64,000 nucleotides of DNA from Bacteroidetes bacterium RIFCSPLOWO2_12_FULL_35_15 (GCA_001769385.1 MEPB01000006.1:24182-88181), one strand, 5' to 3'. Positions 1,666 through 37,300 are shown, counted from the stretch's first letter. The notes: generated by a model not told the origin, from the sequence alone. Translations and numbers: made by a program.

Positions 1666-2391
1666 TTATGCTATCCCCCATTTAGTTTTCAAATAGTATT
1701 CTACTTCTAATATTTCAGGAATACTCAATCTTCTATTAAAAATTATTACCTCATATACTCTATTTGGAGTTGTAACGGACGAAAATCCACCATTACCCAT
1801 GTAAATTCTTGCAGCACTGTAAGAAGGGTTTGATGACTGAGATACTAATAATGGAACCTTTCTGTTACTCCTAAAAACAAGTGGGTAACCAGCGATACCT
1901 GTTTGATTCATCATATACAACCTCTTATTAGTAACCATCGTATTGTCACGCAAATTCCCAACAGCGCCACCGGATGAATCATAAGTAAGAACTTGCGTAC
2001 CAGTATTTGAATCGCCACGTACCTGATGCAACAATGCCGTTAATGTAGCGGTGTAGTTCATTCCGAAAATCAACTCATTAGCTGAACCTCCCGAAACATA
2101 ATTACAATGCGCACCTACTGAGAATGCTGTTAATTCGGATACACCGACTAAACTTGTTATTCCTGTTTTTGAATAGGAACTGTAAGTGCCTTTTATAGTC
2201 AGGAAAGGATAACCGGATGCATCAACTCCTGTTTTCCCCTCTGTTCCTGTCAATGTCAAATCATTATTTCCGGTTTTATCTTTGAAGGTACTAACAACAG
2301 TATTCACAGCTAATGATTTGTAGTCAGAAGCATCCCACCATCCGGCAAGTCCACTTATCTTATTTGGAAATTGTGCGCCTATCGTTCCCAT
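1666..2391 (-). CDS. LamG/concanavalin-like tail fibre or receptor-binding protein (paralogue 2).
   Basis: N-terminal KISGLAGWWDASDYKS and C-terminus ...YLKTKWGIA. It overlaps the 856-aa tail gene by 1 nt. Confidence 0.45.
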   Translation of the reverse strand: MGTIGAQFPNKISGLAGWWDASDYKSLAVNTVVSTFKDKTGNNDLTLTGTEGKTGVDASGYPFLTIKGTYSSYSKTGITSLVGVSELTAFSVGAHCNYVSGGSANELIFGMNYTATLTALLHQVRGDSNTGTQVLTYDSSGGAVGNLRDNTMVTNKRLYMMNQTGIAGYPLVFRSNRKVPLLVSQSSNPSYSAARIYMGNGGFSSVTTPNRVYEVIIFNRRLSIPEILEVEYYLKTKWGIA

Positions 2392-4961
2392 TATGCAAGT
2401 CTTTCAAATGTGGTGGAACAATTTGTTATGCTACCTGATGCGTCACTATGCTGAGCATTAACTACTATATCATTATCAATTGTTGTGTCTAGTGTTTGCG
2501 CTGCGAAAGAACTTACCAATTGGTAAGGCGCTAACGCTCCTAATTGAACAATGTTAAACGTTCCTAACCCCAAAACACTTCCAGAAGCTCCGGTATCAAC
2601 AATTTGAATTTCATAATCTATCTCAAAATAATCATCTGTGTATATTGAATTAACAGCTAATGGCGTAGCAGATGTTAATGTAACTCCTCCTATTTTTATT
2701 TCAATTAATAAAGTGTCAACACTACTGATGGACGTATATTTACCACGTATTTTTAAACGCAATACTTTTCCGCTTGTCATGCTATTTGCGAATACTCTTA
2801 ACGGTGTAGCTGTTGCACCGATATAATCACCTGCTGTTGTAGAAAGTATGGATGTCTTCGTAACTCCTGTAACTGTTTTCGCTCTGTATTGTCGAAAGAA
2901 AACACCACTTAACCAATCGAAAGTAAAACCGTTTTGAGCGTAATTAAATGCTTTCTGATTAACGTCATGAATATCAACAGTACTTATCTCTTGCGCATAA
3001 TCAGTAACACCACTCATGTTACCCATTACTGAATCAGTAGGAATTAATCCTTCATCCACAATAGTTGCATCCCATGTAGAACCATTATATGCGAACTGAG
3101 CCACTTGATATTGGCGAGTCATTGTAATAGATGCTACCGATGTTATAATTACACCTGCACCAGTATCAACTTTTCTTATGTAAAACACAAACCCTGCAAC
3201 ACCTGTTGGATAGGTACAAGTTAATGCACTTGCACCTGTTGTTACATTATATGTTACTCCATTCTCTGTGGCTGCAACTGTCCAACCTGCTGACTTAGCA
3301 ATACCTCTGGAATCGTAATCAAAAACAAAAGTTTTAGTAATGGAGGCATCTCTGAATTTCTTTGCCGAACCGTTATACCATTCCATTCCGTTTAGTAATC
3401 CCGATGTTACATCAACTCCTGCGATATACCGTTGATGTGCTACGGATGCTGTGGAAGCAGGCATCGCTATAAAAGCATTAGTAGGTGCGCCAGCTCCTCC
3501 AACCCCTAAATTTCCAAGGAATGACCAGTTACCGGAAGTGTCCAATGTTGCTTTTATAACATTATATACTTTAATAAGAAAACTCTTATTATCATTTGTA
3601 CCGATAATTGCATTGCCTCCAAAACTATTACCACCTTGAGTAAATGCATTAACAACACTTGATGCAGTCCAAGCCCCTGTGTTGTATGCCCCGGTATAGG
3701 TAAATTGATTATTAGGTGCAGATAAAGAATTTACAACTACGACATTACCTGCTACAGGTGTAGTATAAACCCATGCGGCACTTACCGATTGTGCAATTTT
3801 ATTTTCGCTTCCAACCCAAGCACCTGATAAACCGGCTGCCGGCAATAAGTATCTTTCGCCTTCAACAAATGCCGGAGGCGCTGTAATTGAATTACTTATT
3901 ACAGGATCTAACCAGGAGGATGTGCCATCAGGGACAATGTCGCTTAACATAGCAACCATCCCATCCTTATCAGGATAGGTGTAAGTACGAGCAGCCGTAT
4001 TAGCATTTACAAAGAATGAAGTAAATGTACCGGCTGTATTAACAAATTTTATTTTGAAAGCATCCCAAACAGCAGCCAAAACACGGGCAACGGTAAAATA
4101 CAGATTGGTTAACCCTTCTGGCACATCATCCGTTGTTCCAGGGCTTGCAGTAATGGCAGTATAAACCGTTCCAGTCCATCGATATTGCAAATTATCATCA
4201 ATGGTAATATATATTTTCCCTGTTTCTCCGGCACCTGGCAATGCTGCGTAATTAGCATATTCCAGTACATCATCCACATAACTTGGCAAATAAGCTGCAT
4301 CTATTTTTGATGAAGAATTTAACGGAGCATAGCCACTCGCTGCGCCTTTATTTGTTATTAATTCAAAATCTGATTCAGCGTGAGCTCCAGCAACCATATT
4401 GCTCGATGCGTCAATTACTGCCATTTTAGAAGGCGCTAACTGTGGTAAGTTGATAATCGGAGCATTTAGGGATATCATGCCGGTATGCCGCAAAGCGGCA
4501 ACAGCATCATTTATTTCAAGCCATCCATAATTCGTATCTGCAAAATATTTAAGTAAAATTCCGGTGTCGTAAGCACTAAGTTGTGAGAATCCCAGCAAAA
4601 AAGTTCTGACAATATTGGCTTGATTATATAGGTCAATATATGATTTGCCATCCAAAGAAGAAAAAGTTTTGCTATTCGCTATATAAATTTTATTTGCGTC
4701 CTGGCTTAAATGACTATCACCCAACGACCCTGCATTATTATAAGGAAGAACTCCGGATGTAGGATTAATTGAACCTGCAGGAACATAATTCAATGCGCTC
4801 CATGCAAGAACCCCATCAGCAAATTTAAATCTTCGTTGATTTGTTCCGGAATATAAAAGATCAGAAGTTATTAAAATTCTTTTTTCAGAATAAACAGTTG
4901 TATCAGCTGCCCATGCCGCTGCTGTTTGAACTACTATCTGACTTTGTATATAAAAATCCAT
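2391..4961 (-). CDS. Large tail fibre/tail protein.
   Basis: 856 aa, Gly/Thr/Ser/Asn-rich and beta-rich, upstream of the two LamG-like genes in the same operon. Confidence 0.5.
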   Translation of the reverse strand: MDFYIQSQIVVQTAAAWAADTTVYSEKRILITSDLLYSGTNQRRFKFADGVLAWSALNYVPAGSINPTSGVLPYNNAGSLGDSHLSQDANKIYIANSKTFSSLDGKSYIDLYNQANIVRTFLLGFSQLSAYDTGILLKYFADTNYGWLEINDAVAALRHTGMISLNAPIINLPQLAPSKMAVIDASSNMVAGAHAESDFELITNKGAASGYAPLNSSSKIDAAYLPSYVDDVLEYANYAALPGAGETGKIYITIDDNLQYRWTGTVYTAITASPGTTDDVPEGLTNLYFTVARVLAAVWDAFKIKFVNTAGTFTSFFVNANTAARTYTYPDKDGMVAMLSDIVPDGTSSWLDPVISNSITAPPAFVEGERYLLPAAGLSGAWVGSENKIAQSVSAAWVYTTPVAGNVVVVNSLSAPNNQFTYTGAYNTGAWTASSVVNAFTQGGNSFGGNAIIGTNDNKSFLIKVYNVIKATLDTSGNWSFLGNLGVGGAGAPTNAFIAMPASTASVAHQRYIAGVDVTSGLLNGMEWYNGSAKKFRDASITKTFVFDYDSRGIAKSAGWTVAATENGVTYNVTTGASALTCTYPTGVAGFVFYIRKVDTGAGVIITSVASITMTRQYQVAQFAYNGSTWDATIVDEGLIPTDSVMGNMSGVTDYAQEISTVDIHDVNQKAFNYAQNGFTFDWLSGVFFRQYRAKTVTGVTKTSILSTTAGDYIGATATPLRVFANSMTSGKVLRLKIRGKYTSISSVDTLLIEIKIGGVTLTSATPLAVNSIYTDDYFEIDYEIQIVDTGASGSVLGLGTFNIVQLGALAPYQLVSSFAAQTLDTTIDNDIVVNAQHSDASGSITNCSTTFERLA

Positions 4962-5144
4962 TTTCTTACCAATTTATATTTACAACTTCCGCATCTAATG
5001 CGCTTGAAATAACTGAGCCTTGCAATACACCATTCAAAAAAACATTAACGGTTCCTCCACCGGTAGCAACCAAAGCTTTTTCCATAACTAAGTCAACAGC
5101 TATTTCAATGTTATTTACAATTTCTATGTCAACTGTATCAGCCA

Positions 5145-5540
5145 TTATGGAAGTGTTAGTGTAGAAGTAATTGAATCTTTCAGCGTGAATAAATATTTTT
5201 TTGTAATGCTGTCGTATTTTGAATCATCTGTTACGCCTGCGTCTGTCTTCCTAACTAATACCTCAATGTTTTTTTTACTCAAACTTCCGGTTTTTGTATC
5301 GGTACTATCGATGGCAATTATTAAAATACCGGTAGCCTGATCTGTAACGTCAATGCTCTTCCATCCGGCTGAAACGGTACGCGAATATTTTTGAAAAACA
5401 GAGTTGTCCTGATTATAAATTACAATCACAATATTATTATATCCGATGGAAAAATCAAGAGGAGCTCCAAGGGCATTTTTTACAGTCAACCTAAAGGTTT
5501 TATCCTCGTTCCGATAAACTATTTCTTCACGCTCGTTCAT
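5145..5540 (-). CDS. Hypothetical phage structural protein.
   Basis: 131-aa ORF in the tail module. Confidence 0.4.
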   Translation of the reverse strand: MNEREEIVYRNEDKTFRLTVKNALGAPLDFSIGYNNIVIVIYNQDNSVFQKYSRTVSAGWKSIDVTDQATGILIIAIDSTDTKTGSLSKKNIEVLVRKTDAGVTDDSKYDSITKKYLFTLKDSITSTLTLP

Positions 5541-5594
5541 TGTAAAATTTTTATTTAAAATTAATTTTCAAACATCCGAATAAAAAGGACAGCC

Positions 5595-6125
5595 CTAAAA
5601 CGTCCACTTGGTTTCATCTTCCCATTTACTTTCATCCAACTGATCCGATTTGTTCGTGCTGATCACATGATTTACAATCCATCCGAACCATCCATCGAAC
5701 ACGGGTCCTACAGGCGTTAACCGGATGCTATTTAATTGCAAATGTTTGATCAGGTTTTCAGGAGAAGGTTGTGCTGAGTCAAATGCTTTTCTCCGATCAT
5801 TTTTCAGTTTCGTAACCATGTCCCAGGCTATTTCAAACATTTCATTTCCGGCCGCTTCAATTTGAGTCCAGTCAGCTGAATTGCATTTTTTTAAAATAAG
5901 TGCTCCGCCATTTAATTGAAGCATCACATTGTCCGAATCATTGTCAATTGGACTATATTCAGGCTCTTGCAATGCAATCATCGGAGAATTAATATTTTTT
6001 AATTCAGTCAACACAGCTTCAGGACCAAACGTGCAAAAATGAATACTCGTTTCATCAACATGCGCTATCGACTTATGCCTGATGGCAGCGTTTTTCCAAT
6101 AAGTTTTGTGTTCTGATGGATTCAT
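5595..6125 (-). CDS. Hypothetical phage protein.
   Basis: 176-aa ORF; start/stop overlaps with the neighbouring ORF (ATGA). Confidence 0.4.
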   Translation of the reverse strand: MNPSEHKTYWKNAAIRHKSIAHVDETSIHFCTFGPEAVLTELKNINSPMIALQEPEYSPIDNDSDNVMLQLNGGALILKKCNSADWTQIEAAGNEMFEIAWDMVTKLKNDRRKAFDSAQPSPENLIKHLQLNSIRLTPVGPVFDGWFGWIVNHVISTNKSDQLDESKWEDETKWTF

Positions 6126-24621: not shown

Positions 24622-25047
24622 TTATAATTTAGTACGCATTTCAATTTCTATTTTGGCCAGGTTAATTATTTGTCCGATTGAACTGGATATTTCTTTTGCC
24701 TGAGGCACGTATTCTTTATCGGCTTTCACTTTTTCGATATTATCTAATAGAGTATCCCTGAGCTTCGACATTATGCTTAATGGAATAGTTTGTGATTTGA
24801 GAATTACTGCCGTGTTTTTATTTAGTTCAGTAACATCACCGGAGATCGCCACTTCAACTTCAATGTGATTCTGAAATAAAATATTTAAATCAAATAATGT
24901 TGTCATGATCCACTCTGAATCTGTGGCAATATGAATCACGTCATTATCCTGCCTGAAGGATTGAAATAATAATATCTGATCGTTTTTTTTGTTTTTAAAG
25001 TGCTTCCCCATCATGGATTGCAGCTTTTTAATTTTGTCGTTGCTCAT
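24622..25047 (-). CDS. Hypothetical protein.
   Basis: 141-aa ORF. Confidence 0.35.
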   Translation of the reverse strand: MSNDKIKKLQSMMGKHFKNKKNDQILLFQSFRQDNDVIHIATDSEWIMTTLFDLNILFQNHIEVEVAISGDVTELNKNTAVILKSQTIPLSIMSKLRDTLLDNIEKVKADKEYVPQAKEISSSIGQIINLAKIEIEMRTKL

Positions 25048-25852
25048 GTTTTTTAATTTGTCGGTTTAACATTAATTCATTTCTTTTTAGTTCAATTAAT
25101 TCGGGATATTTTAATAATTCTTTTTTCAATTCCGGTTTTTTAAATGCCAGCAATCCGGCTACGTATCTATCACTTAAGGCCATATTTGATGATGCTGCAT
25201 TTAGCATTGCGTTTTCCGCCCTGGTAATTAATGATAAATTTTCAAGTGTAACATTGGTTGTGTCTTCATCTAAAAATCTCAAAACAAATCCTTCAGGTAC
25301 CGGTCCGAAATGTTGTTCAAATAACCATGGTCCATAATGAACAAATCCGGATCCTGTTTTTATTACTTTAAATGGCCTGTTATAATCGCGATCGTACCAG
25401 GTGCGAATATCACCAACTTTCAAAACTCTTCCTTCCCAGCATTTCCAATGACTATCAGCATATCTGCGCATATCAACATTTCGTACTTTAATTTCAGATT
25501 TTTCAATTTCTGTTCGTTTCAGTTGCAGATACCTTCTTTTCTTCTCAACATGTTTTTGCCTCCATCCTTTATTTTTATTGTAGAAAACATTGAATAGTTC
25601 AGCGATTTCCGTGTCACCCAAAACTTTATAAAACTTCTTCAGGAAATAAATCTGATCATCATTCCAGTATTCCAGATCCATTCTTTTCAATCCAAGTTCA
25701 TAAAGTTTTGTCCGGGTTGTAGTAAGTCTTAAATTCAAAGCATTAGCCAACTCGCTATTTGTCATCGATTGATAATTTGCTTTTAAAAAGCAAAGCATAT
25801 CATCTGTCCAGACAGTTTCATTGTACACGTATTTCCCGTTTTTATATGGCAT
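25028..25852 (-). CDS. HNH homing-endonuclease-like protein.
   Basis: C-terminal WLFEQHFGPVPEGFVLRFLDEDTTNVTLENLSLITRAENA is HNH_3-like. Confidence 0.5.
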   Translation of the reverse strand: MPYKNGKYVYNETVWTDDMLCFLKANYQSMTNSELANALNLRLTTTRTKLYELGLKRMDLEYWNDDQIYFLKKFYKVLGDTEIAELFNVFYNKNKGWRQKHVEKKRRYLQLKRTEIEKSEIKVRNVDMRRYADSHWKCWEGRVLKVGDIRTWYDRDYNRPFKVIKTGSGFVHYGPWLFEQHFGPVPEGFVLRFLDEDTTNVTLENLSLITRAENAMLNAASSNMALSDRYVAGLLAFKKPELKKELLKYPELIELKRNELMLNRQIKKHEQRQN

Positions 25853-25853
25853 A

Positions 25854-26159
25854 CTATGTAAATATTAATCGTTTATTTTCTTTGATAATTTTTGATTCAA
25901 AAGGAAATCCATTTTCAGGGACCTGCTGGATCTGATCCATCAAGGCGCCCGAACCGGTAAATACAACATGATATGCTGCACCAATCATAATTTGTAAATG
26001 CAAACACTTTCCATTGCTTTTATCCTTTGCGTATTTTGATTCTACAATCCGGAAAGCGTGCACCATTATTTTATTATTCAGGATGTTATCCATTTCTATT
26101 TTGGTTCCGATAAAAGATTTTGAAGCAGTTTCGATACCGAATTCGCTAAACTTTTTCAT
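25854..26159 (-). CDS. Hypothetical protein.
   Basis: 101-aa ORF directly downstream of the RT. Confidence 0.35.
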   Translation of the reverse strand: MKKFSEFGIETASKSFIGTKIEMDNILNNKIMVHAFRIVESKYAKDKSNGKCLHLQIMIGAAYHVVFTGSGALMDQIQQVPENGFPFESKIIKENKRLIFT

Positions 26160-27105
26160 TTGCTATTTTCTTTTTTAGATTAATACAATTGGCGTGATTT
26201 AACCATCCATTATAGGATGCTAATGATTGCCGGTTTTTGTTTTTGGATATCATCCGGAAACAGTTTTGTTTTATTCGCTTCCTTAATCGAACATGTGTGT
26301 GGTAAAATACATAACCAACAAAATCAACTCCGCGATATTCAACCGGAAATACCTGGTAGTTTTTTTTAACTGTTAATTTTAAATGTTCCTGCATGTATTT
26401 TTTTATATCAGCAAGGATGGCGTGTAAATAGGGTTTATTATCAGAAAGGATCACAATATCATCAGCATACCGGAAATAATACTTCACTGCTTTATCTTCT
26501 TTTATCCAGTGATCGAGATAGGTGAGATAGAAATTTGCAAAATATTGACTTAAATAATTTCCAATTGGTAGTCCCGGTGCGCTATCAATAATTTCATCAA
26601 GCAAAATCAATAAATCAACATCCTTTATTTTTTTTCGAAGCATGTATTTTAAAATATCATGATTCACATTCGGATAAAACTTCGTTACGTCAAGTTTTAA
26701 GCAATATTTTGTTCCCTGCTTATCAACTAATGCTTTTTTGAATGAACGTACGGCTGCATGTATTCCTTTCCCTTTTATACAGCTATATGTATCCGCAGTA
26801 AATGTTGAAACAAAAATCTTTTCCATTACATTCATAATCGCATGATGAACAATTCGATCAGGAAAGTATGGCAAACAAAATATTTCGCGTGGCTTAGGAT
26901 CTGTAATCATAAAAGTTTTATACTCGGATGTTTTATAGGTTTTGTTTTTCAGCGATTCATGAAGCTGTAGTATTTTTTCTTCACGATTCTTATCAAATAG
27001 CTGAACACCGTATTGATGTTTTTTGCCTTTTCTGGCATTTGCATCAGCAGCATATAAATTTTCAATGCTGATGATCTTATCGTATATGTTTCCTGTTCTT
27101 TTCAT
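26146..27105 (-). CDS. Diversity-generating-retroelement-type reverse transcriptase. The likely true start is Met at 27105; the ORF track extends it to 27309 across the TR-like repeat.
   Basis: N-terminal MKRTGNIYDKIISIENLYAADANARKGK, the catalytic FRYADDIVIL, and the DGR-diagnostic LPIGNYLSQYF (I/LGxxxSQ in place of the group II QG motif). About 320 aa and no maturase or endonuclease domain. Confidence 0.75.
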   Translation of the reverse strand: MKRTGNIYDKIISIENLYAADANARKGKKHQYGVQLFDKNREEKILQLHESLKNKTYKTSEYKTFMITDPKPREIFCLPYFPDRIVHHAIMNVMEKIFVSTFTADTYSCIKGKGIHAAVRSFKKALVDKQGTKYCLKLDVTKFYPNVNHDILKYMLRKKIKDVDLLILLDEIIDSAPGLPIGNYLSQYFANFYLTYLDHWIKEDKAVKYYFRYADDIVILSDNKPYLHAILADIKKYMQEHLKLTVKKNYQVFPVEYRGVDFVGYVFYHTHVRLRKRIKQNCFRMISKNKNRQSLASYNGWLNHANCINLKKKIANEKV

Positions 27106-27215
27106 TCCTTTGCTTTCACGGTCGTTTTCGTTTTCACTACCAACGCCCAATCTTTTAAACTTTATTTTTTGCCCTGTTGGCAAGGTTTGCATTGTTATTA
27201 AATTATTCCCAGCAT

Positions 27216-27284
27216 AGGTGGGAGCCGCAATCCGTACCCGTGTGCCAACCATCGTAATTCGAGTACGAGAAGCCGAAGCCCGAC
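27216..27284 (-). repeat. Copy A of a 69-bp repeat, the DGR template-repeat (TR) candidate. It lies in a non-coding context 5' of the RT.
   Basis: aggtgggagccgcaatccgtacccgtgtgccaaccatcgtaattcgagtacgagaagccgaagcccga. Its flanks are unique and its 3' (sense) end differs from copies B and C. Confidence 0.55.
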
Positions 27285-27321
27285 ACATCAAACAGCTCAT
27301 CCAATGCACAACCCAATTTCA

Positions 27322-27696
27322 TTACATTAAATAATAATCAATGTATAGTTGTTTAAATTGCTCTACCGCATATAAGCATAAATCACTTGATTTAAAGCAA
27401 AGGCGGGAGCCGCAATACGTAAGCGTGCTCCAACCAGCGTAAGCCGAGTCCGAGACGCCGAAGCCCGATGGCTTTTCGTTAGAGGCATCTACTTCAAACC
27501 ATGGGAAGTATTTCCATTCATTTTTATTATTCCAGTTTGGTTCCCATCCTTCATTCAATGCCTGAGTGATGATGATAAGTTTATAATGGGATAACAAAGC
27601 TTTCTGATGCTTTTCAGGAAGCGCACTTACATCAGGTAATGTTTCAGAAGTGTTTAATGCTTTGCACGCATCTTCAAATGTTTTGATTTTGTTCAT
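27322..27696 (-). CDS. DGR variable target protein 2 (small; C-terminal variable region).
   Basis: Paralogue of 27704..28189 (IKTFEDAC, NEGWEPNWNN..EWKYFPWFE). Its C-terminal ...PSGFGVSDSAYAGWSTLTYCGSRLCF is encoded by repeat copy B. Confidence 0.6.
   Translation of the reverse strand: MNKIKTFEDACKALNTSETLPDVSALPEKHQKALLSHYKLIIITQALNEGWEPNWNNKNEWKYFPWFEVDASNEKPSGFGVSDSAYAGWSTLTYCGSRLCFKSSDLCLYAVEQFKQLYIDYYLM
27401..27469 (-). repeat. Repeat copy B, the variable-repeat (VR) candidate at the 3' end of target 2.
   Basis: aggcgggagccgcaatacgtaagcgtgctccaaccagcgtaagccgagtccgagacgccgaagcccga. Confidence 0.6.
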
Positions 27697-27703
27697 TTGT
27701 TTA

Positions 27704-28189
27704 TTATTTGATTGTTAAAAATTGATTGTATAAGTCGATGAATTGTGTCCCGGCATAAATGGCTAACTCTTTATTTTTAAAGCAAAGGCGGGAGCCGCAA
27801 GTCGAATGCGTGAACCAAATACCGTAATCCGAGTACGAGAAGCCGAAGCCCGACTTGTTTGCTTCAAACCAAGGGTAATATTTATATTCACTGGAGTTGT
27901 TCCAATCCGGCTTCCACCCTTCGTTCAATGATCTATTGATGATTGAAATTTTCAGAAATGCTTGCGCAGCCAATAATTCTTCATCAACTCCACTATAATT
28001 CAATAATATTGACTGGCTTTCTGTAGTTCCAACTTCATCACATGCATCTTCAAATGTTTTTATTCGATCCATAATGTTTTGTGAAAGGATCTCTTTGCCG
28101 ATTAAATTTTCAAGCAAAGATTTTCCGCTTTTGTCAGCGGATCTGTATGCTTTTAAGGCATTTGATTTTTTAATGTTGATTGTTCCCAT
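27704..28189 (-). CDS. DGR variable target protein 1 (small; C-terminal variable region).
   Basis: Its C-terminal ...KSGFGFSYSDYGIWFTHSTCGSRLCF is encoded by repeat copy C. Confidence 0.6.
   Translation of the reverse strand: MGTINIKKSNALKAYRSADKSGKSLLENLIGKEILSQNIMDRIKTFEDACDEVGTTESQSILLNYSGVDEELLAAQAFLKISIINRSLNEGWKPDWNNSSEYKYYPWFEANKSGFGFSYSDYGIWFTHSTCGSRLCFKNKELAIYAGTQFIDLYNQFLTIK
27786..27854 (-). repeat. Repeat copy C, the VR candidate at the 3' end of target 1.
   Basis: aggcgggagccgcaagtcgaatgcgtgaaccaaataccgtaatccgagtacgagaagccgaagcccga. Confidence 0.6.
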
Positions 28190-33444: not shown

Positions 33445-33801
33445 ATGAAAGAAGCAATAGATTTATATCTAAAGAAGCGTGGAAAGACAATAAAGGATAT
33501 ACTTCCAGAGATTGGAATGACAGAGGCCGGTTATTATGCTGCTATCAGAAATGATAGTATGAAAGTAATTACACTGCAGAAAATTGCAAAAGCTCTTTCA
33601 GTCTCCATTTGCCAATTTTTTACCGAAAATGACAATAATCTGACGGAGCCGAAAGCTGATTCTGGGAATGACACCGAAATTGTAAAAACATTGAAACGAA
33701 CAATAAAGGCGCAAGAAATTGCAATGGAGGCAATGCAGGTAACAATTAACATGCTTCAAAAGGAAGAAGCACGCCAAATAACTTATAGTAAAAAGAAATA
33801 A
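33445..33801 (+). CDS. XRE-family helix-turn-helix repressor (phage CI-like).
   Basis: HTH_XRE signature KTIKDILPEIGMTEAGYYAAIRNDS..ITLQKIAKALSVSICQFF. It is the only plus-strand gene in the phage region and is divergently arranged from the lytic genes. Confidence 0.6.
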   Translation: MKEAIDLYLKKRGKTIKDILPEIGMTEAGYYAAIRNDSMKVITLQKIAKALSVSICQFFTENDNNLTEPKADSGNDTEIVKTLKRTIKAQEIAMEAMQVTINMLQKEEARQITYSKKK

Positions 33802-34269
33802 TAAAAAGATTGAATTCATACAGCGTTAGCTGATCTTGTCCGTTAAAAACCGCGAACTTTTAAAATCACACAAGAACAAGCCCAAACGTTCACGCAAAGC
33901 GTGGGCAGGCTTATTTGTGTGTGATGCGTGCTTCGCGGTACGTTAACGGCATGGGTATAGTTCTAGCTCACGCTGATTTTTTAAAAGCTTATGAGTGCGT
34001 GTAAAGGTTGCGAACTATTCGATTTATTGATAGAACTAAATAAAGCTCTGGAGAAAACAATAAAGAACCAGAAAAAAGCAATAAAACTGCTTACCAAGAA
34101 TCAACAATTAAAAATGGATTTTAACCCGAATTAACGCACTAAATAAAATGCGCCAAGTGAGTCAAGTGCGCCACGAGTGCGCCAAAAATGAAAACACAAA
34201 ATATAGCAATATCAGTATGTACAGGAAATTATACGGAAGATTTGAATCCCTTCGCGGTCACAAAAATTA

Positions 34270-34297
34270 AAGCCCTTGATTTCAAGGGCTTTTTTTA
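34270..34297. terminator. Bidirectional terminator hairpin.
   Basis: AAAGCCCTTGAtttCAAGGGCTTTTTTT, between the phage region and the end of the T9SS gene. Confidence 0.55.
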
Positions 34298-34381
34298 TGA
34301 TATTTTTGATTTTTATCTATTATGATTTTTCATATGTAAAGTCTAATGAATATTAAATTTATTCTGAAGACTACTAAAGAA

Positions 34382-37300
34382 TTATTTTACTACTAATCGT
34401 TTATGTATTATTTCGTTTTTACTTGTTGCTGTTACCATATAAACACCTGAAGACAGTCTTGTTAAAGGATCTATTGCGGTAATAGTTTGGTCAGTGGTTT
34501 TTGTAATAATTTTAGAATAAACCTCTTGCCCTGTTGCATCATAAAGAACAACCAAAATTTCTTCATTTTCATTTCCTGTTAACAAAATATTAAATCCATT
34601 TCCATCGTTTGGATTTGGAAATATATTTACAGAAGTTCCTGCTTTCTTATAATCTATTGAAACTATATTGGAGTAATTCCTATTCCCATCATAATCTGTT
34701 TGTTTTAATCTGTAATAAGAAGTCCCGGCATAAGGATTTAAATCCACCTCTGAATAATACAATGTGTTTGTACTTGTTCCTGCTCCATCAATGGTTATGA
34801 CAGATTCAAAATTGGCTGCGTCAATACTTTTTTCTATTGTGAAGTAATCATTGTTTTTTTCAGAAGCTGTACTCCAGGCTAAATCAACTGTTTTTGATGA
34901 ATTTAATTTTGCATCAAAAGTTAATAATTTTATTGGCAAAGGGTTTAATCCAATACGTGATCCAAATGTAAACGGACTGAATGAGTTCATAACATCAGAT
35001 GTTATATTTCCAGGACTTGCTGCAGTAATAGATGATTGCCCTGCATTTTCCCATGCACTACCATTCCAGTGGGCAACATTCAAATCGGAAGAGTAATTAT
35101 TTATAAAGCTTCTGGCAGCATCTTCCCAAAATAATTGTACCGGCACATCTGAAGTTCCTGTGTTTCTATCACATGTCCAATATTCAACTATACTTACATT
35201 ATTTAATACCGGTGCCGGAATGGTTGCCATAGATAAAAAGTCAACATAGGGTGTGTCAAAATATTGAGCAGTAAATGCGTCTGTTGCATCTGAAGGGGTC
35301 CCTATTCCCAATCGAGCCCAGGTACTGCCTTTCCCAATTGGAAATACAAAGGCTTGGTTTCCAATTTTTTTCATTGGCCCATTTACAAAACTTGTGTTTG
35401 TTCCCGCTGTAGAGGTGGCGTTGTCTGTTAGTGTTAAAATATTTGTTGATGTTGTGTTTATTATTCCATCGGTCATTGTCAAGCTTCCGGTAACCGTAAG
35501 AGGAATTAAAAGTGTTGTTGTTGATCCAGGTTTGTTTTGTTCAAGATGATCAAAAGTTATGGAACCTAATGTACTGTTAATTGTAGCTGGTGTACTACTA
35601 AAAAAAGTAACTACTTGTCCTGTGGTTGTTAAATTCCCATTCAAAATAAGATTACCTCCAATAGTTAGTGGTTTATTATAAGTTAAATCAGCTCCTGTTG
35701 CAATAGTTAGGTTATAATAATTACCTATACCGGTTCCATCAACAACAACAGGATTCCCTGTAAATGTTACCGTAGAAGTATTTCCGTTAAATACACCATT
35801 GTTTGTAAAGTTCCCTGCAATTGTATGACTAAGACTTGTTCCTGCATTAAAAGTTGAACCTGTTCCTATTAATACATCCTGAAGATTCCAGGAGTTAGGT
35901 GGAGTGATGCCGGTTGTATTGGTATTTGATATTTCTAAAAAATTGAAAACAGGGGCATTATCCAAAATGGTAATGGGCTCTGTTCCTCCAAATTCAACTT
36001 CTCCTGTACTTAAAAAACTTCCTCCAACGTCATCAAGCCGGATAGTGGCTTCAGCAGAAAACGGGGGCTGAGGCATAAAATAGATTTTGTAATTACTTAT
36101 TACATTTCCATTATTAGTAAAATTCCCATAAAATGTATGTTTTAAAGAACCACCATTAAAAGTAGCTCCTGCTCCTACTGTGAAAGAACCGTAAACAGAC
36201 CAAGGTTCTGATGCTGTTATTCCTGCTGTGTTATTAATGTTTACAGTAGCAAATATAGGAGGAGTATTACTGTTTAGAATGGGAGCAACAGTTCCATTAA
36301 AATTAATTACTCCGGTTGAAGTGGATGTCATTGCGTTTATTAACTGCAATGTTTGGACTCTTGTTCCAGTAAATGTTACCGCACCACTGCTAAACAAAGT
36401 TCCCTTATTTGTGCAATCACCATTAAAACTAACAGTAGATGATCCCCAATTAACTGAGCTTAAAGTATCCACAAAAAAATCACCTGAAATGGATATGTTA
36501 GAATTTAAAAAAGTATATGAACCGCCTGAAGCTACCAGGTTATCCAGAGTAGCATTTCCCGAAAATGTTTTAGATATGCCACTTAATATAAGTGTGCTTT
36601 TATAAGTAGAATAAGTACCATTATTTGTTAAATTTCCATATACAGTGACAATGTTTGAATCACAATAAATTGTTGCACCTGAGTTTATTGTAAGATCCCC
36701 TTTAATCAGTACAGTTCGCAAATGAAAATGTTTTTTGTTACTTCCACCATTGGATATGAGTAGATTTCCAAATTCAGTTGCTAAAATATGCTGGTGCATT
36801 GTACCGTTAAATTCGACCGTACTTGATGCATGCATAACATTGGTTATAAAGTTGGTTGGAAAATTAGTTGCTCCTCCCACTTTCAGGTAGGAAGCAGAAT
36901 CAAGCATAAATGTACCACCGGGATTGCTTCTGTTTGCATTATACATTGCCAGGTCCATTGTTCCTTTACTGATCAGCAGGTCGCTGTTTATTATTAAATT
37001 TCCACTAAGAGATAAGGAACCTGAGGGTTTGTTTACAATTAGAATATTAAATGTATTCGCATTTACAAATTGATCGGTTGTTCCATTAAAATTTACAGAT
37101 CCGGAGTTGGTTGTAAATGTTCCGTTGTTCGTCCAGCTTCCCATTAAATTAATCCTGGCTCCGAATTCAATGAAATTGGTATTGGAACCAATTGAAATAT
37201 TTCCGGCAACTGTCAGTGTATCAGAAATTGCCAGTTCACCTCCTATGCCGGTGCTTAAATTTCCATTAATAACTGTCGGGAAATTAATTTTTGCCCGTTC

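Follow-up and report, generated by a model that had tools for sequence, protein, structure and literature searches.

How can a retroelement that diversifies its target genes from a dedicated template come to carry a template that does not account for its own products? This question arises from one diversity-generating retroelement (DGR) in a 64,000-nucleotide stretch of DNA from Bacteroidetes bacterium RIFCSPLOWO2_12_FULL_35_15 (GCA_001769385.1, MEPB01000006.1:24182-88181; hereafter the window, from whose start all coordinates are counted). Its cassette lies wholly on the minus strand and comprises two small target genes, T1 and T2, a reverse transcriptase (RT) gene, and three copies of a short repeat, A, B and C. 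We propose, with a probability of roughly 80%, that the variable repeats (VRs) of the targets were written from a template repeat (TR) with multiple AAY codons, and that this TR was then itself adenine-mutagenized, likely by the product of the element to which it belongs.

The locus is a genuine DGR, belonging to a clade that is widespread in the phages and prophages of Bacteroidota. Its RT begins with MKRTGNIYDKI, contains LPIGNYLSQYF and YADD, and finds its best match in the Protein Data Bank (PDB) in the Bordetella phage enzyme bRT (8ub7_A, E 4.7e-44), as against E-values of about 1e-17 for group II and retron RTs. When aligned to 8ub7_A, IGNYLSQ falls on IGSLTSQ and YADD on YMDD (the IGxxxSQ and YxDD motifs), and D138, D215 and D216 are numbered in that chain in agreement with bRT as described in the literature (10.1101/2023.10.23.563531). 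These results bear out an initial annotation of the same DNA, which had described an RT of about 320 residues with these motifs and a DGR-type N-terminus and had assigned it to the DGR type rather than to group II introns. Members of the clade are abundant in public metagenomes and in IMG/VR, and share a cassette of one to three tandem small targets, a TR, a structured spacer RNA, the RT and an OB-fold gene. This general kind of DGR is already known; hence, to call the locus non-canonical for lacking Avd and having two targets, as had been done, was an overstatement, both architectures having been described: the accessory-less architecture A makes up 29% of DGRs, two targets occur in 13%, and a Bacteroides lineage without avd is on record (Wu et al. 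2018, PMC5758913).

The three repeat copies were found where the initial annotation had placed them, with a 24-nt core pattern giving three exact matches against 0.00 expected by chance and a 14-nt 3' pattern giving three against 0.31, and the alignment could be extended to 73 nt. A search of the window with both anchor patterns for a further, pristine copy of the TR recovered only these three. As in other DGRs, a non-coding copy (A) stands beside the RT and the remaining copies lie inside the targets (B in T2, C in T1), two small paralogous genes upstream of the RT, as annotated (tblastn identity 48%); about 25 codons follow each VR, so the targets do not end with the repeat as had been supposed. 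The differences among the copies are, as first noted, confined to the first and second positions of NNY codons, and all 21 of the third positions that are non-adenine in the sister-lineage TR described below are identical across the copies. Likewise, B and C have a common 3' end (...CCCGCCTTTGCTTTAAA) that is distinct from that of A (...CCCACCTATGCTGGG). The mismatches of A with B and C, on the other hand, are not those of a DGR template with its products. Only 13 of the 25 fall on adenines of A and 12 on its G, C or T (at TR adenines, 7/13 for VR1 and 6/12 for VR2), in contrast to the near-exclusive placement of mismatches at adenines of the present TR that characterizes DGRs. The non-adenine mismatches occur in the very codons by which B and C differ from one another, and AAT is present in A at just one variable codon. 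Thus, of the earlier assignment of A as TR and of B and C as VRs, the positional part stands, A occupying the TR locus and B and C being VRs, but A in its present form cannot have been their template; the AAY hallmark that had been read into copy A is missing from most of its variable codons and is seen only in the sister-lineage TR.

To place this discrepancy in context we fetched about 70 loci via the target protein and the RT, and for each RT used a script to scan the region 40-275 nt upstream for repeats that recur in the same locus. A unique RT and a TR/VR pair were obtained for 45 loci; in 43 of these, TR adenines account for 85% or more of the mismatches, with 0-3 non-adenine mismatches per VR; a typical VR shows 12-16 mismatches at A and 0-1 elsewhere, and there are 1-3 VRs per locus. 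The two exceptions are the window and a locus of another type, L065. The simplest view of the window, namely a functional DGR in which the present copy A is the template and B and C its direct products, is in keeping with the architecture, the RT type and the distinct 3' ends, as well as with the fact that about half of the mismatches fall on adenines, which form just 15% of the TR. Nevertheless, we regard it as very improbable given the 12 mismatches at G, C or T, the rarity of such mismatches in the 43 related loci, and their disappearance once the TR of a sister lineage is taken as the template.

That sister lineage is represented by the closest relatives of the window locus, L007 and L069, with an RT 82% identical to that of the window and with the upstream primase gene and the cassette in common. 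Their TR reads TCG GGC TTC AGC TTC TCG AAC TCG AAT TAC GAT AAT, followed by TGG AAC ACG AAT ACG AAT TGC AGC TCC CAC CTA TGC; it contains six AAY codons and is flanked by the same sequences as the window TR. Against this template, 13 of 13 mismatches of the window VR1 and 14 of 15 of VR2 (27 of 28 together) fall at adenines, and both VRs are explicable as adenine-mutagenized copies of a TR of this sister type. The sister lineage has also been recently active as a DGR: L007 and L069 differ at just nine sites in 6,957 nt, all in VR1 at TR-adenine positions, and therefore this kind of element is an active one. All nine differences lie in the 5' half of VR1 (L007, 3750-3773) and the two contigs come from different sources, a pattern suggestive of homing that was partial or recent. 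IMG/VR was also searched for further TR variants sharing the non-adenine skeleton, with zero matches. Among the more distant loci, L004 carries a second, different RT gene (2083-3120; 345 aa, RVT_1) about 3 kb upstream of its three-target DGR; it adjoins a DnaB-like helicase gene, and genes for a UDG and a WCX-domain protein lie between this RT and the DGR targets.

Comparison of the window TR with that of L007 and L069 reveals nine differences, all of them at adenines (seven A-to-G, one A-to-T and one A-to-C). Consequently, 9 of 20 ancestral TR adenines have been lost (hypergeometric P 1.2e-6, for 20 adenines in 76 nt), with the 3' end typical of TRs and the flanks being kept; the lost adenines are conserved in the TRs of much more distant members of the family. 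We do not take this P-value, which presumes equal rates, as evidence for a burst, as it overstates the case given that 45% of the 4-fold sites differ between the RT genes of the window and L007. A more telling contrast is provided by L007 and L004, in which 58% of the RT 4-fold sites differ, yet just seven TR sites do so, five of these being at third codon positions and none in the AA dinucleotides of AAY codons. The pattern of the window TR is the reverse of this, with nine adenines changed and zero third positions.

The VRs furthermore provide an internal clock. Of the nine changed sites, six are in disagreement between the window TR and VR1 and five between that TR and VR2, amounting to seven distinct sites; such changes postdate the last writing of the VR, because the VR would have received a faithful copy of any earlier change in the TR. 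Of 19 ancestral-A sites, at least six thus changed after VR1 was written, compared to 0 of 46 non-A sites (Fisher P 3e-4) and 0 of 21 third positions (Fisher P 7e-3). Two of the nine changes are AGC-to-GGC substitutions in the Gly codons of GFG and CGS, positions at which 88% and 99% of the family proteins, respectively, have Gly. At no fewer than nine other loci (L042, L012, L045, L057, L014, L046, L010, L013 and L016) the TR carries the same substitution, suggesting that residues required by the target have been repeatedly hard-wired into the templates of the family; the two in the window may be older substitutions of this kind and would then be uninformative for timing. At the level of sequence comparison, then, we consider the ancestral state of the TR, the adenine-specificity of its changes and their timing relative to the VRs to be established.

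Two explanations that invoke no mutagenesis of the template may be weighed against these data. Were the DGR inactive in the lysogen, or had selection for mutability lapsed, adenines could have been lost one by one through ordinary decay. The fraction lost, 9/20, indeed equals the 45% divergence at 4-fold sites, seven of the nine changes are A-to-G transitions, and neither VR has been rewritten since. We nonetheless hold this to be improbable. Not one of 53-56 non-adenine TR sites has changed, including 21 third positions that would be equally free to do so in a dead element; the adenine changes, at least six of them, accumulated in an interval that saw no other difference arise between the TR and VR1; A-to-G change runs against the AT-biased composition of the genome; the open reading frames (ORFs) of the RT and of p101, the protein encoded directly after it, are intact; and the pattern is stronger in L065, where it extends to five A-to-T and three A-to-C changes. 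The other explanation is an artefact of assembly or consensus calling, with heterogeneous VR reads threaded into the position of the TR; in its favor, the genome was assembled from a metagenome and a span of 650 bp holds three similar repeats. This can be given hardly any credence. A contig from an independent assembler (MEGAHIT; L075) agrees exactly with 6.5 kb of the window that take in the TR; a read is longer than the 73-nt repeat, which is bordered on either side by unique sequence; the middle of the TR matches neither VR; with a pristine TR, no k-mer beyond about 12 nt would be common to it and the VRs; and the unrelated L065 displays the same phenomenon.

L065 is a DGR of a different type, with an RT only 45% identical to that of the window, a target of 564 aa and an intact RT ORF. 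Its TR (2767-2883) differs from those of its relatives L064 and L066 at 17 positions, all at adenines (nine to G, five to T and three to C); for the comparison with L066 this is 17 of 118 sites, P 8e-12. Its VR still reflects the old template, and 11 of the TR changes postdate that VR, against 0 of 86 non-A sites (P 1e-7). The reading of the window TR as having undergone a burst of adenine mutagenesis is strengthened because adenine-only change of a TR recurs in this unrelated locus.

What, then, could have mutagenized the template? In related DGRs the RT copies the TR transcript into cDNA with misreading at adenines, and the cDNA replaces the VR in each target. We posit that the window VRs were written in this manner from an AAY-carrying TR, that the TR afterwards took A-to-N changes at its nine adenines, and that these may have arisen when the element's own adenine-mutagenized cDNA was installed in the TR DNA instead of a VR. 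Such an event would amount to a leak in the discrimination between donor and recipient that is normally conferred by the distinct 3' elements of VR and TR, the initiation of mutagenic homing (IMH) site and its TR counterpart IMH*. The chances that direct installation of cDNA, the route we favor, was the actual one we regard as about evenly balanced. In its favor, the fraction of mutable TR adenines that changed, 47-50%, is near the 51.6% misincorporation of a single pass by bRT-Avd (PMC7826257); at least 8 bp of 5' homology is enough for cDNA integration (PMC3240598); the complementarity of the cDNA is higher to the TR than to any VR; and in an Escherichia coli reconstitution the stem-loop that follows the IMH in the target was helpful but non-essential (PMC12875486).

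The 3' ends of the repeats bear on this proposal. In a comparison covering about 50 VRs of the family, the VR sequences cGcc and ctTtg correspond to cAcc and ctAtg in most TRs, with a few TRs diverging there, and TR and VR sequences part after TGC. The ctAtg/ctTtg difference is at a synonymous Leu site, and because of this the 3' differences are not products of mutagenesis. By analogy with characterized DGRs we infer that these IMH- and IMH*-type ends set the direction of transfer. The window TR has been mutated yet keeps its IMH*-type end, and therefore either the discrimination leaked or some other route was used. AT-rich hairpins of 5-6 bp with 4-nt loops are present 3' of both VRs, and are no better than those of shuffled sequences (z 0.33 and -1.23).

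Several points weigh against self-mutagenesis of the TR and temper our confidence in it. For the window genome the comparison is of a consensus sequence, and the sister lineage used to reconstruct the ancestral TR is itself well diverged (45% of 4-fold sites). As that divergence coincides with the fraction of adenines lost, the count alone cannot dismiss slow neutral loss; only the internal clock opposes it, and for the window its significance is modest (P 3e-4 to 7e-3). An excess of the density of change in the TR over that in its flanks, tried as a statistic for a burst, failed to reach significance (Fisher P 0.82). The retained IMH*-type end is, in the Bordetella phage BPP-1, the very bar to a role as recipient. 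Finally, the spectrum of seven G, one T and one C is richer in G than that of raw bRT (about 35% of changes; P ~0.01) and nearer to that of the post-selection VRs of the family (55-58% G), so that it fits a VR-derived or transition-biased origin better than raw cDNA.

The last of these points lends itself to the main alternative, in which a VR variant, from the element's own past or from a co-infecting sibling genome, was recombined into the TR by homologous recombination or single-strand annealing. Besides the G-rich spectrum, such a back-conversion would explain why the TR, read in the frame of the VR, encodes a segment that is plausible for a target (SGFGFSYSNYDGWHTGTDCGS) and has Gly at both of the positions occupied by Gly in 88% and 99% of the family, and why the corrupted TR of L065 has G at four of the five sites where the three VRs compared all have G. 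As evidence of VR origin the two Gly codons are weakened by the same A-to-G change in at least nine other family TRs, where it may be independent hard-wiring. Moreover, the converted tract matches neither resident VR and would need a donor no longer present, there are only 9 nt of 5' homology before the first change and at most 16 mismatched nt 3' of the last, and a 73-nt repeat of about 80% identity, with no long perfect run between TR and VR and almost no flanking homology, is a poor substrate; recombination between TR and VR was rare in the E. coli reconstitution (PMC12875486). We therefore view back-conversion as unlikely, while according it appreciable weight. By either route the TR now has nine mutable adenines versus 18 before, reducing the theoretical DNA repertoire from 4^18 to 4^9. 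Given its intact RT and p101 ORFs, the element may still work with this reduced repertoire.

The targets T1 and T2 belong to an uncharacterized phage protein family (phrog_11581), for which our searches returned 872 homologues; a protein identical to T1 is recorded from the metagenome-assembled genome Bacteroidetes bacterium RIFCSPLOWO2_12_FULL_35_15. They are small and acidic (pI 5.3-5.9), are encoded beside replication genes rather than tail genes, and contain a hypervariable segment between GFGFS and GSRLCF with near-invariant residues on both sides. An AlphaFold2 model of T1 (mean predicted local distance difference test score, pLDDT, 86) has a helical N-terminal domain and an irregular VR segment (pLDDT 56-57). 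The C-type lectin, DUF1566 or FGE-like fold that had been suggested for the targets finds no support in this model, in a comparison of the T1 family profile with PDB sequences or in a Pfam search with 72 members, the last two of which returned nothing; based on the model, a minimal or divergent lectin-like fold is possible. The Bacteroides phages BI-TP1 and Versailles encode homologues in their replication/recombination modules, with no RT adjacent. In viruses, DGR targets are as a rule tail proteins (Roux et al. 2021); T1 and T2 could possibly have a non-structural role. We considered whether the DGRs of the Bacuni (B. uniformis) phages are of the same family and rejected this, as those have Avd and DUF1566 targets. 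A further contig (P0002; ENA ERZ27297709) encodes, at 5001-5876, a homologue 67% identical to T1 and a 127-aa paralogue, followed by a 630-nt gap and small ORFs with no RT called; these genes may be a cassette that has lost its RT, or orphan targets.

The cassette might also possess an accessory protein of its own. No Avd-like ORF and none of the named accessories HRDC, MSL and CH1 were found at the window locus, confirming the annotated absence of a recognizable Avd; the conserved neighbor is instead p101, a basic OB-fold protein. Among the fetched loci in which the RT is at least 60% identical and the sequence extends far enough downstream, all but L031 have a homologue of p101 directly 3' of the RT; one also directly follows the RT in L025 and L072 (3971-4288 in the latter), in which the RT identity is 56-59%. 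Synteny of p101 extends to about 40 of the fetched loci, the remaining flanking genes varying among them. Furthermore, a 420-aa ORF in L022 (750-2012) and L053 joins it in frame to the RT C-terminus (hhalign probability 99.5%), in L034 (1974-2249) a homologue is placed where Avd classically lies, between VR and TR, and in L063 there is a weak match at the same place. The pI of p101, 9.3, is comparable to the average of 9.5 for Avd proteins (Wu et al. 2018, PMC5758913). We considered and discarded an identification with CH1, which is acidic and 160-169 aa long, and going by their descriptions p101 matches none of the four accessory classes (Avd, HRDC, MSL, CH1) of Wu et al. 2018. Judging from gene order and fusion, p101 is a strong candidate for a partner of the RT and for a new DGR accessory protein. 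In a limited search of the literature we found no description of an OB-fold accessory or of its fusion to the RT.

Conservation in the non-coding part of the cassette points to a structured DGR RNA. An RNAalifold analysis of 22 loci predicts that alignment columns 19-25 pair with columns 140-146 to form a long-range duplex enclosing the TR, for which 3-11 sequences show compensatory changes at six of the seven pairs and none do at the seventh; in all, 18 of the 25 predicted pairs are supported by such changes. The order in the window RNA (27106-27310, minus strand) is the duplex around the TR, a short stem-loop, an adenosine run and a second helix. The TR-RT spacer matches the full-length Rfam model RT-17 (RF03020), the window sequence scoring 29.1 bits (E 8e-4), under the gathering score of 40.4, and its orthologues in L048 (44.0), L072 (43.2) and L020 (42.7) scoring above it; unlike the spacer, the duplex enclosing the TR falls outside that model.

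The coordinates of the features are collected in the table. On the minus strand the genes run from the primase-like gene through T1, T2, copy A, the RT and p101 to an HNH endonuclease gene; the T2-RT intergenic region, 216 nt long, contains copy A, which lies 106 nt upstream of the RT start. The prophage location beside replication genes holds, with the primase upstream, the terminase, head protease and tail genes downstream of the cassette on the same strand, and chromosomal genes beyond about 34 kb. The apparent junction of prophage and host is at about 33800-34400: phage-like genes, nearly all on the minus strand, stop near 33.8 kb, and from 34382 on there are chromosomal Bacteroidota genes, among them those for a 2083-aa protein sorted by the type IX secretion system, an ion channel and hydantoinases. 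A search for tRNA genes found none within the window. The HNH endonuclease gene (25028-25852) is missing from all related loci and may be a separately mobile insertion beside the cassette. A 39-aa ORF (MKLGCALDELFDVSGFGFSYSNYDGWHTGTDCGSHLCWE; 27206-27325, minus strand) spans the TR in the VR frame and starts inside the T2 stop; it is unconserved and its start codon is missing in L004, and we treat it as spurious.

Table. Features of the DGR cassette and its neighbors in the window
Feature	Coordinates	Strand	Remarks
Primase-like gene, 1016 aa	28257..31307	-	phrog DNA primase match; upstream neighbor of T1
Target gene T1, 161 aa	27704..28189	-	phrog_11581, E 8.4e-35
VR1 (copy C), 73 nt, IMH-like 3' end GCGGCTCCCGCCTTTGCT	27781..27853	-	inside T1
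Target gene T2, 124 aa, T1 paralogue without the first ~37 residues	27322..27696	-	phrog_11581, E 1.5e-30
VR2 (copy B), 73 nt, IMH-like 3' end as in VR1	27396..27468	-	inside T2
Long-range duplex, 5' strand TGCATTG	27302..27308	-	RNAalifold, 22 loci
TR (copy A), 73 nt, IMH*-like 3' end CCCACCTATGCT	27211..27283	-	position and flanks orthologous to the TRs of L007, L069 and L004
Long-range duplex, 3' strand CAATGCA	27188..27194	-	RNAalifold, 22 loci
TR-RT spacer RNA: stem-loop TTGCC/GGCAA, A-run, second covarying helix	27106..27187	-	Rfam RT-17 match
DGR RT, 319 aa, intact ORF	26146..27105	-	RVT_1, 4.4e-18; phrog_1423, 1.7e-122
p101, 101-aa basic OB-fold protein, 14-nt overlap with the RT stop	25854..26159	-	candidate accessory protein
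HNH endonuclease gene	25028..25852	-	immediately after p101

Taken in full, our proposal is that the discrimination between donor and recipient in DGRs leaks in nature, so that an element's own adenine-mutagenized cDNA occasionally overwrites and erodes its TR and in the end freezes its repertoire, and that in this clade a small OB-fold protein, in some cases fused to the RT, takes the place of Avd as partner of the RT; in this comprehensive form we advance it tentatively, at somewhat less than even odds. DGR biology assumes an invariant TR, with information passing only from TR to VR, and the two natural loci suggest that the safeguard is not absolute. If correct, the proposal would define an intrinsic pathway of DGR decay, seen in 2 of 45 loci, and a hidden cause of the non-adenine mismatches that have been reported in about a quarter of catalogued DGRs; these other than A-to-N mismatches have been ascribed to RT infidelity or to errors of integration, rather than to change in the TR (Wu et al. 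2018, PMC5758913). Such loci would be rejected where a pipeline requires mismatches to be adenine-specific, current ones discarding loci with less than about 75-80% of them at adenines, and cases are therefore probably under-counted. The decay of a DGR would become datable and measurable from sequence alone, by comparing the TR of a locus with sister TRs, with the VRs serving to show what the template once was, and in engineered DGR mutagenesis self-targeting of the TR would be a practical failure mode. The clade further offers p101 as a candidate new accessory, and a family of small acidic targets without a detectable lectin fold. The literature on aligned TRs reports no substitutions, and our limited search found no description of a natural TR with adenine-specific mutation.

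Among known systems, the Avd-less architecture A and the Bacteroides-associated lineage 3 (PMC5758913) resemble the window locus in having no avd, a TR-RT core, multiple adjacent targets and a setting in Bacteroidota and their phages; this likeness to lineage 3 of Wu et al. 2018 is one of architecture and setting. With the BPP-1 DGR (mtd-avd-TR-brt) it has in common a homologous RT, a TR directly upstream of the RT, adenine-specific transfer from TR to VR (as seen in the relatives of the window locus) and fixed 3' differences of the IMH/IMH* type, and its RNA resembles that of BPP-1 in the upstream:Sp "cPRT Stop" duplex, the stem-loop and the adenosines (10.1101/2023.10.23.563531). It departs from BPP-1 in having a basic OB-fold gene after the RT instead of Avd, and two small tandem targets (one to three elsewhere) by replication genes in place of a tail-fiber gene. 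Also unlike in BPP-1, about 25 codons separate the VR from the stop, a GC-rich hairpin is missing downstream of the VR, and no C-type lectin fold is detectable. Most pertinent to the question posed at the outset, the TR of BPP-1 "remains unchanged" (PMC3240598), whereas that of the window has been mutated. This contrast is best viewed beside an engineered counterpart of the window locus. Doulatov and colleagues reportedly found in 2004 that when the IMH* of the BPP-1 TR is swapped for IMH, the TR becomes a recipient of mutagenic homing. The outcome in that engineered TR is the same as that seen here, namely adenine-specific substitution of the TR; the case in the window is a natural one, in which the IMH*-type end has been kept.

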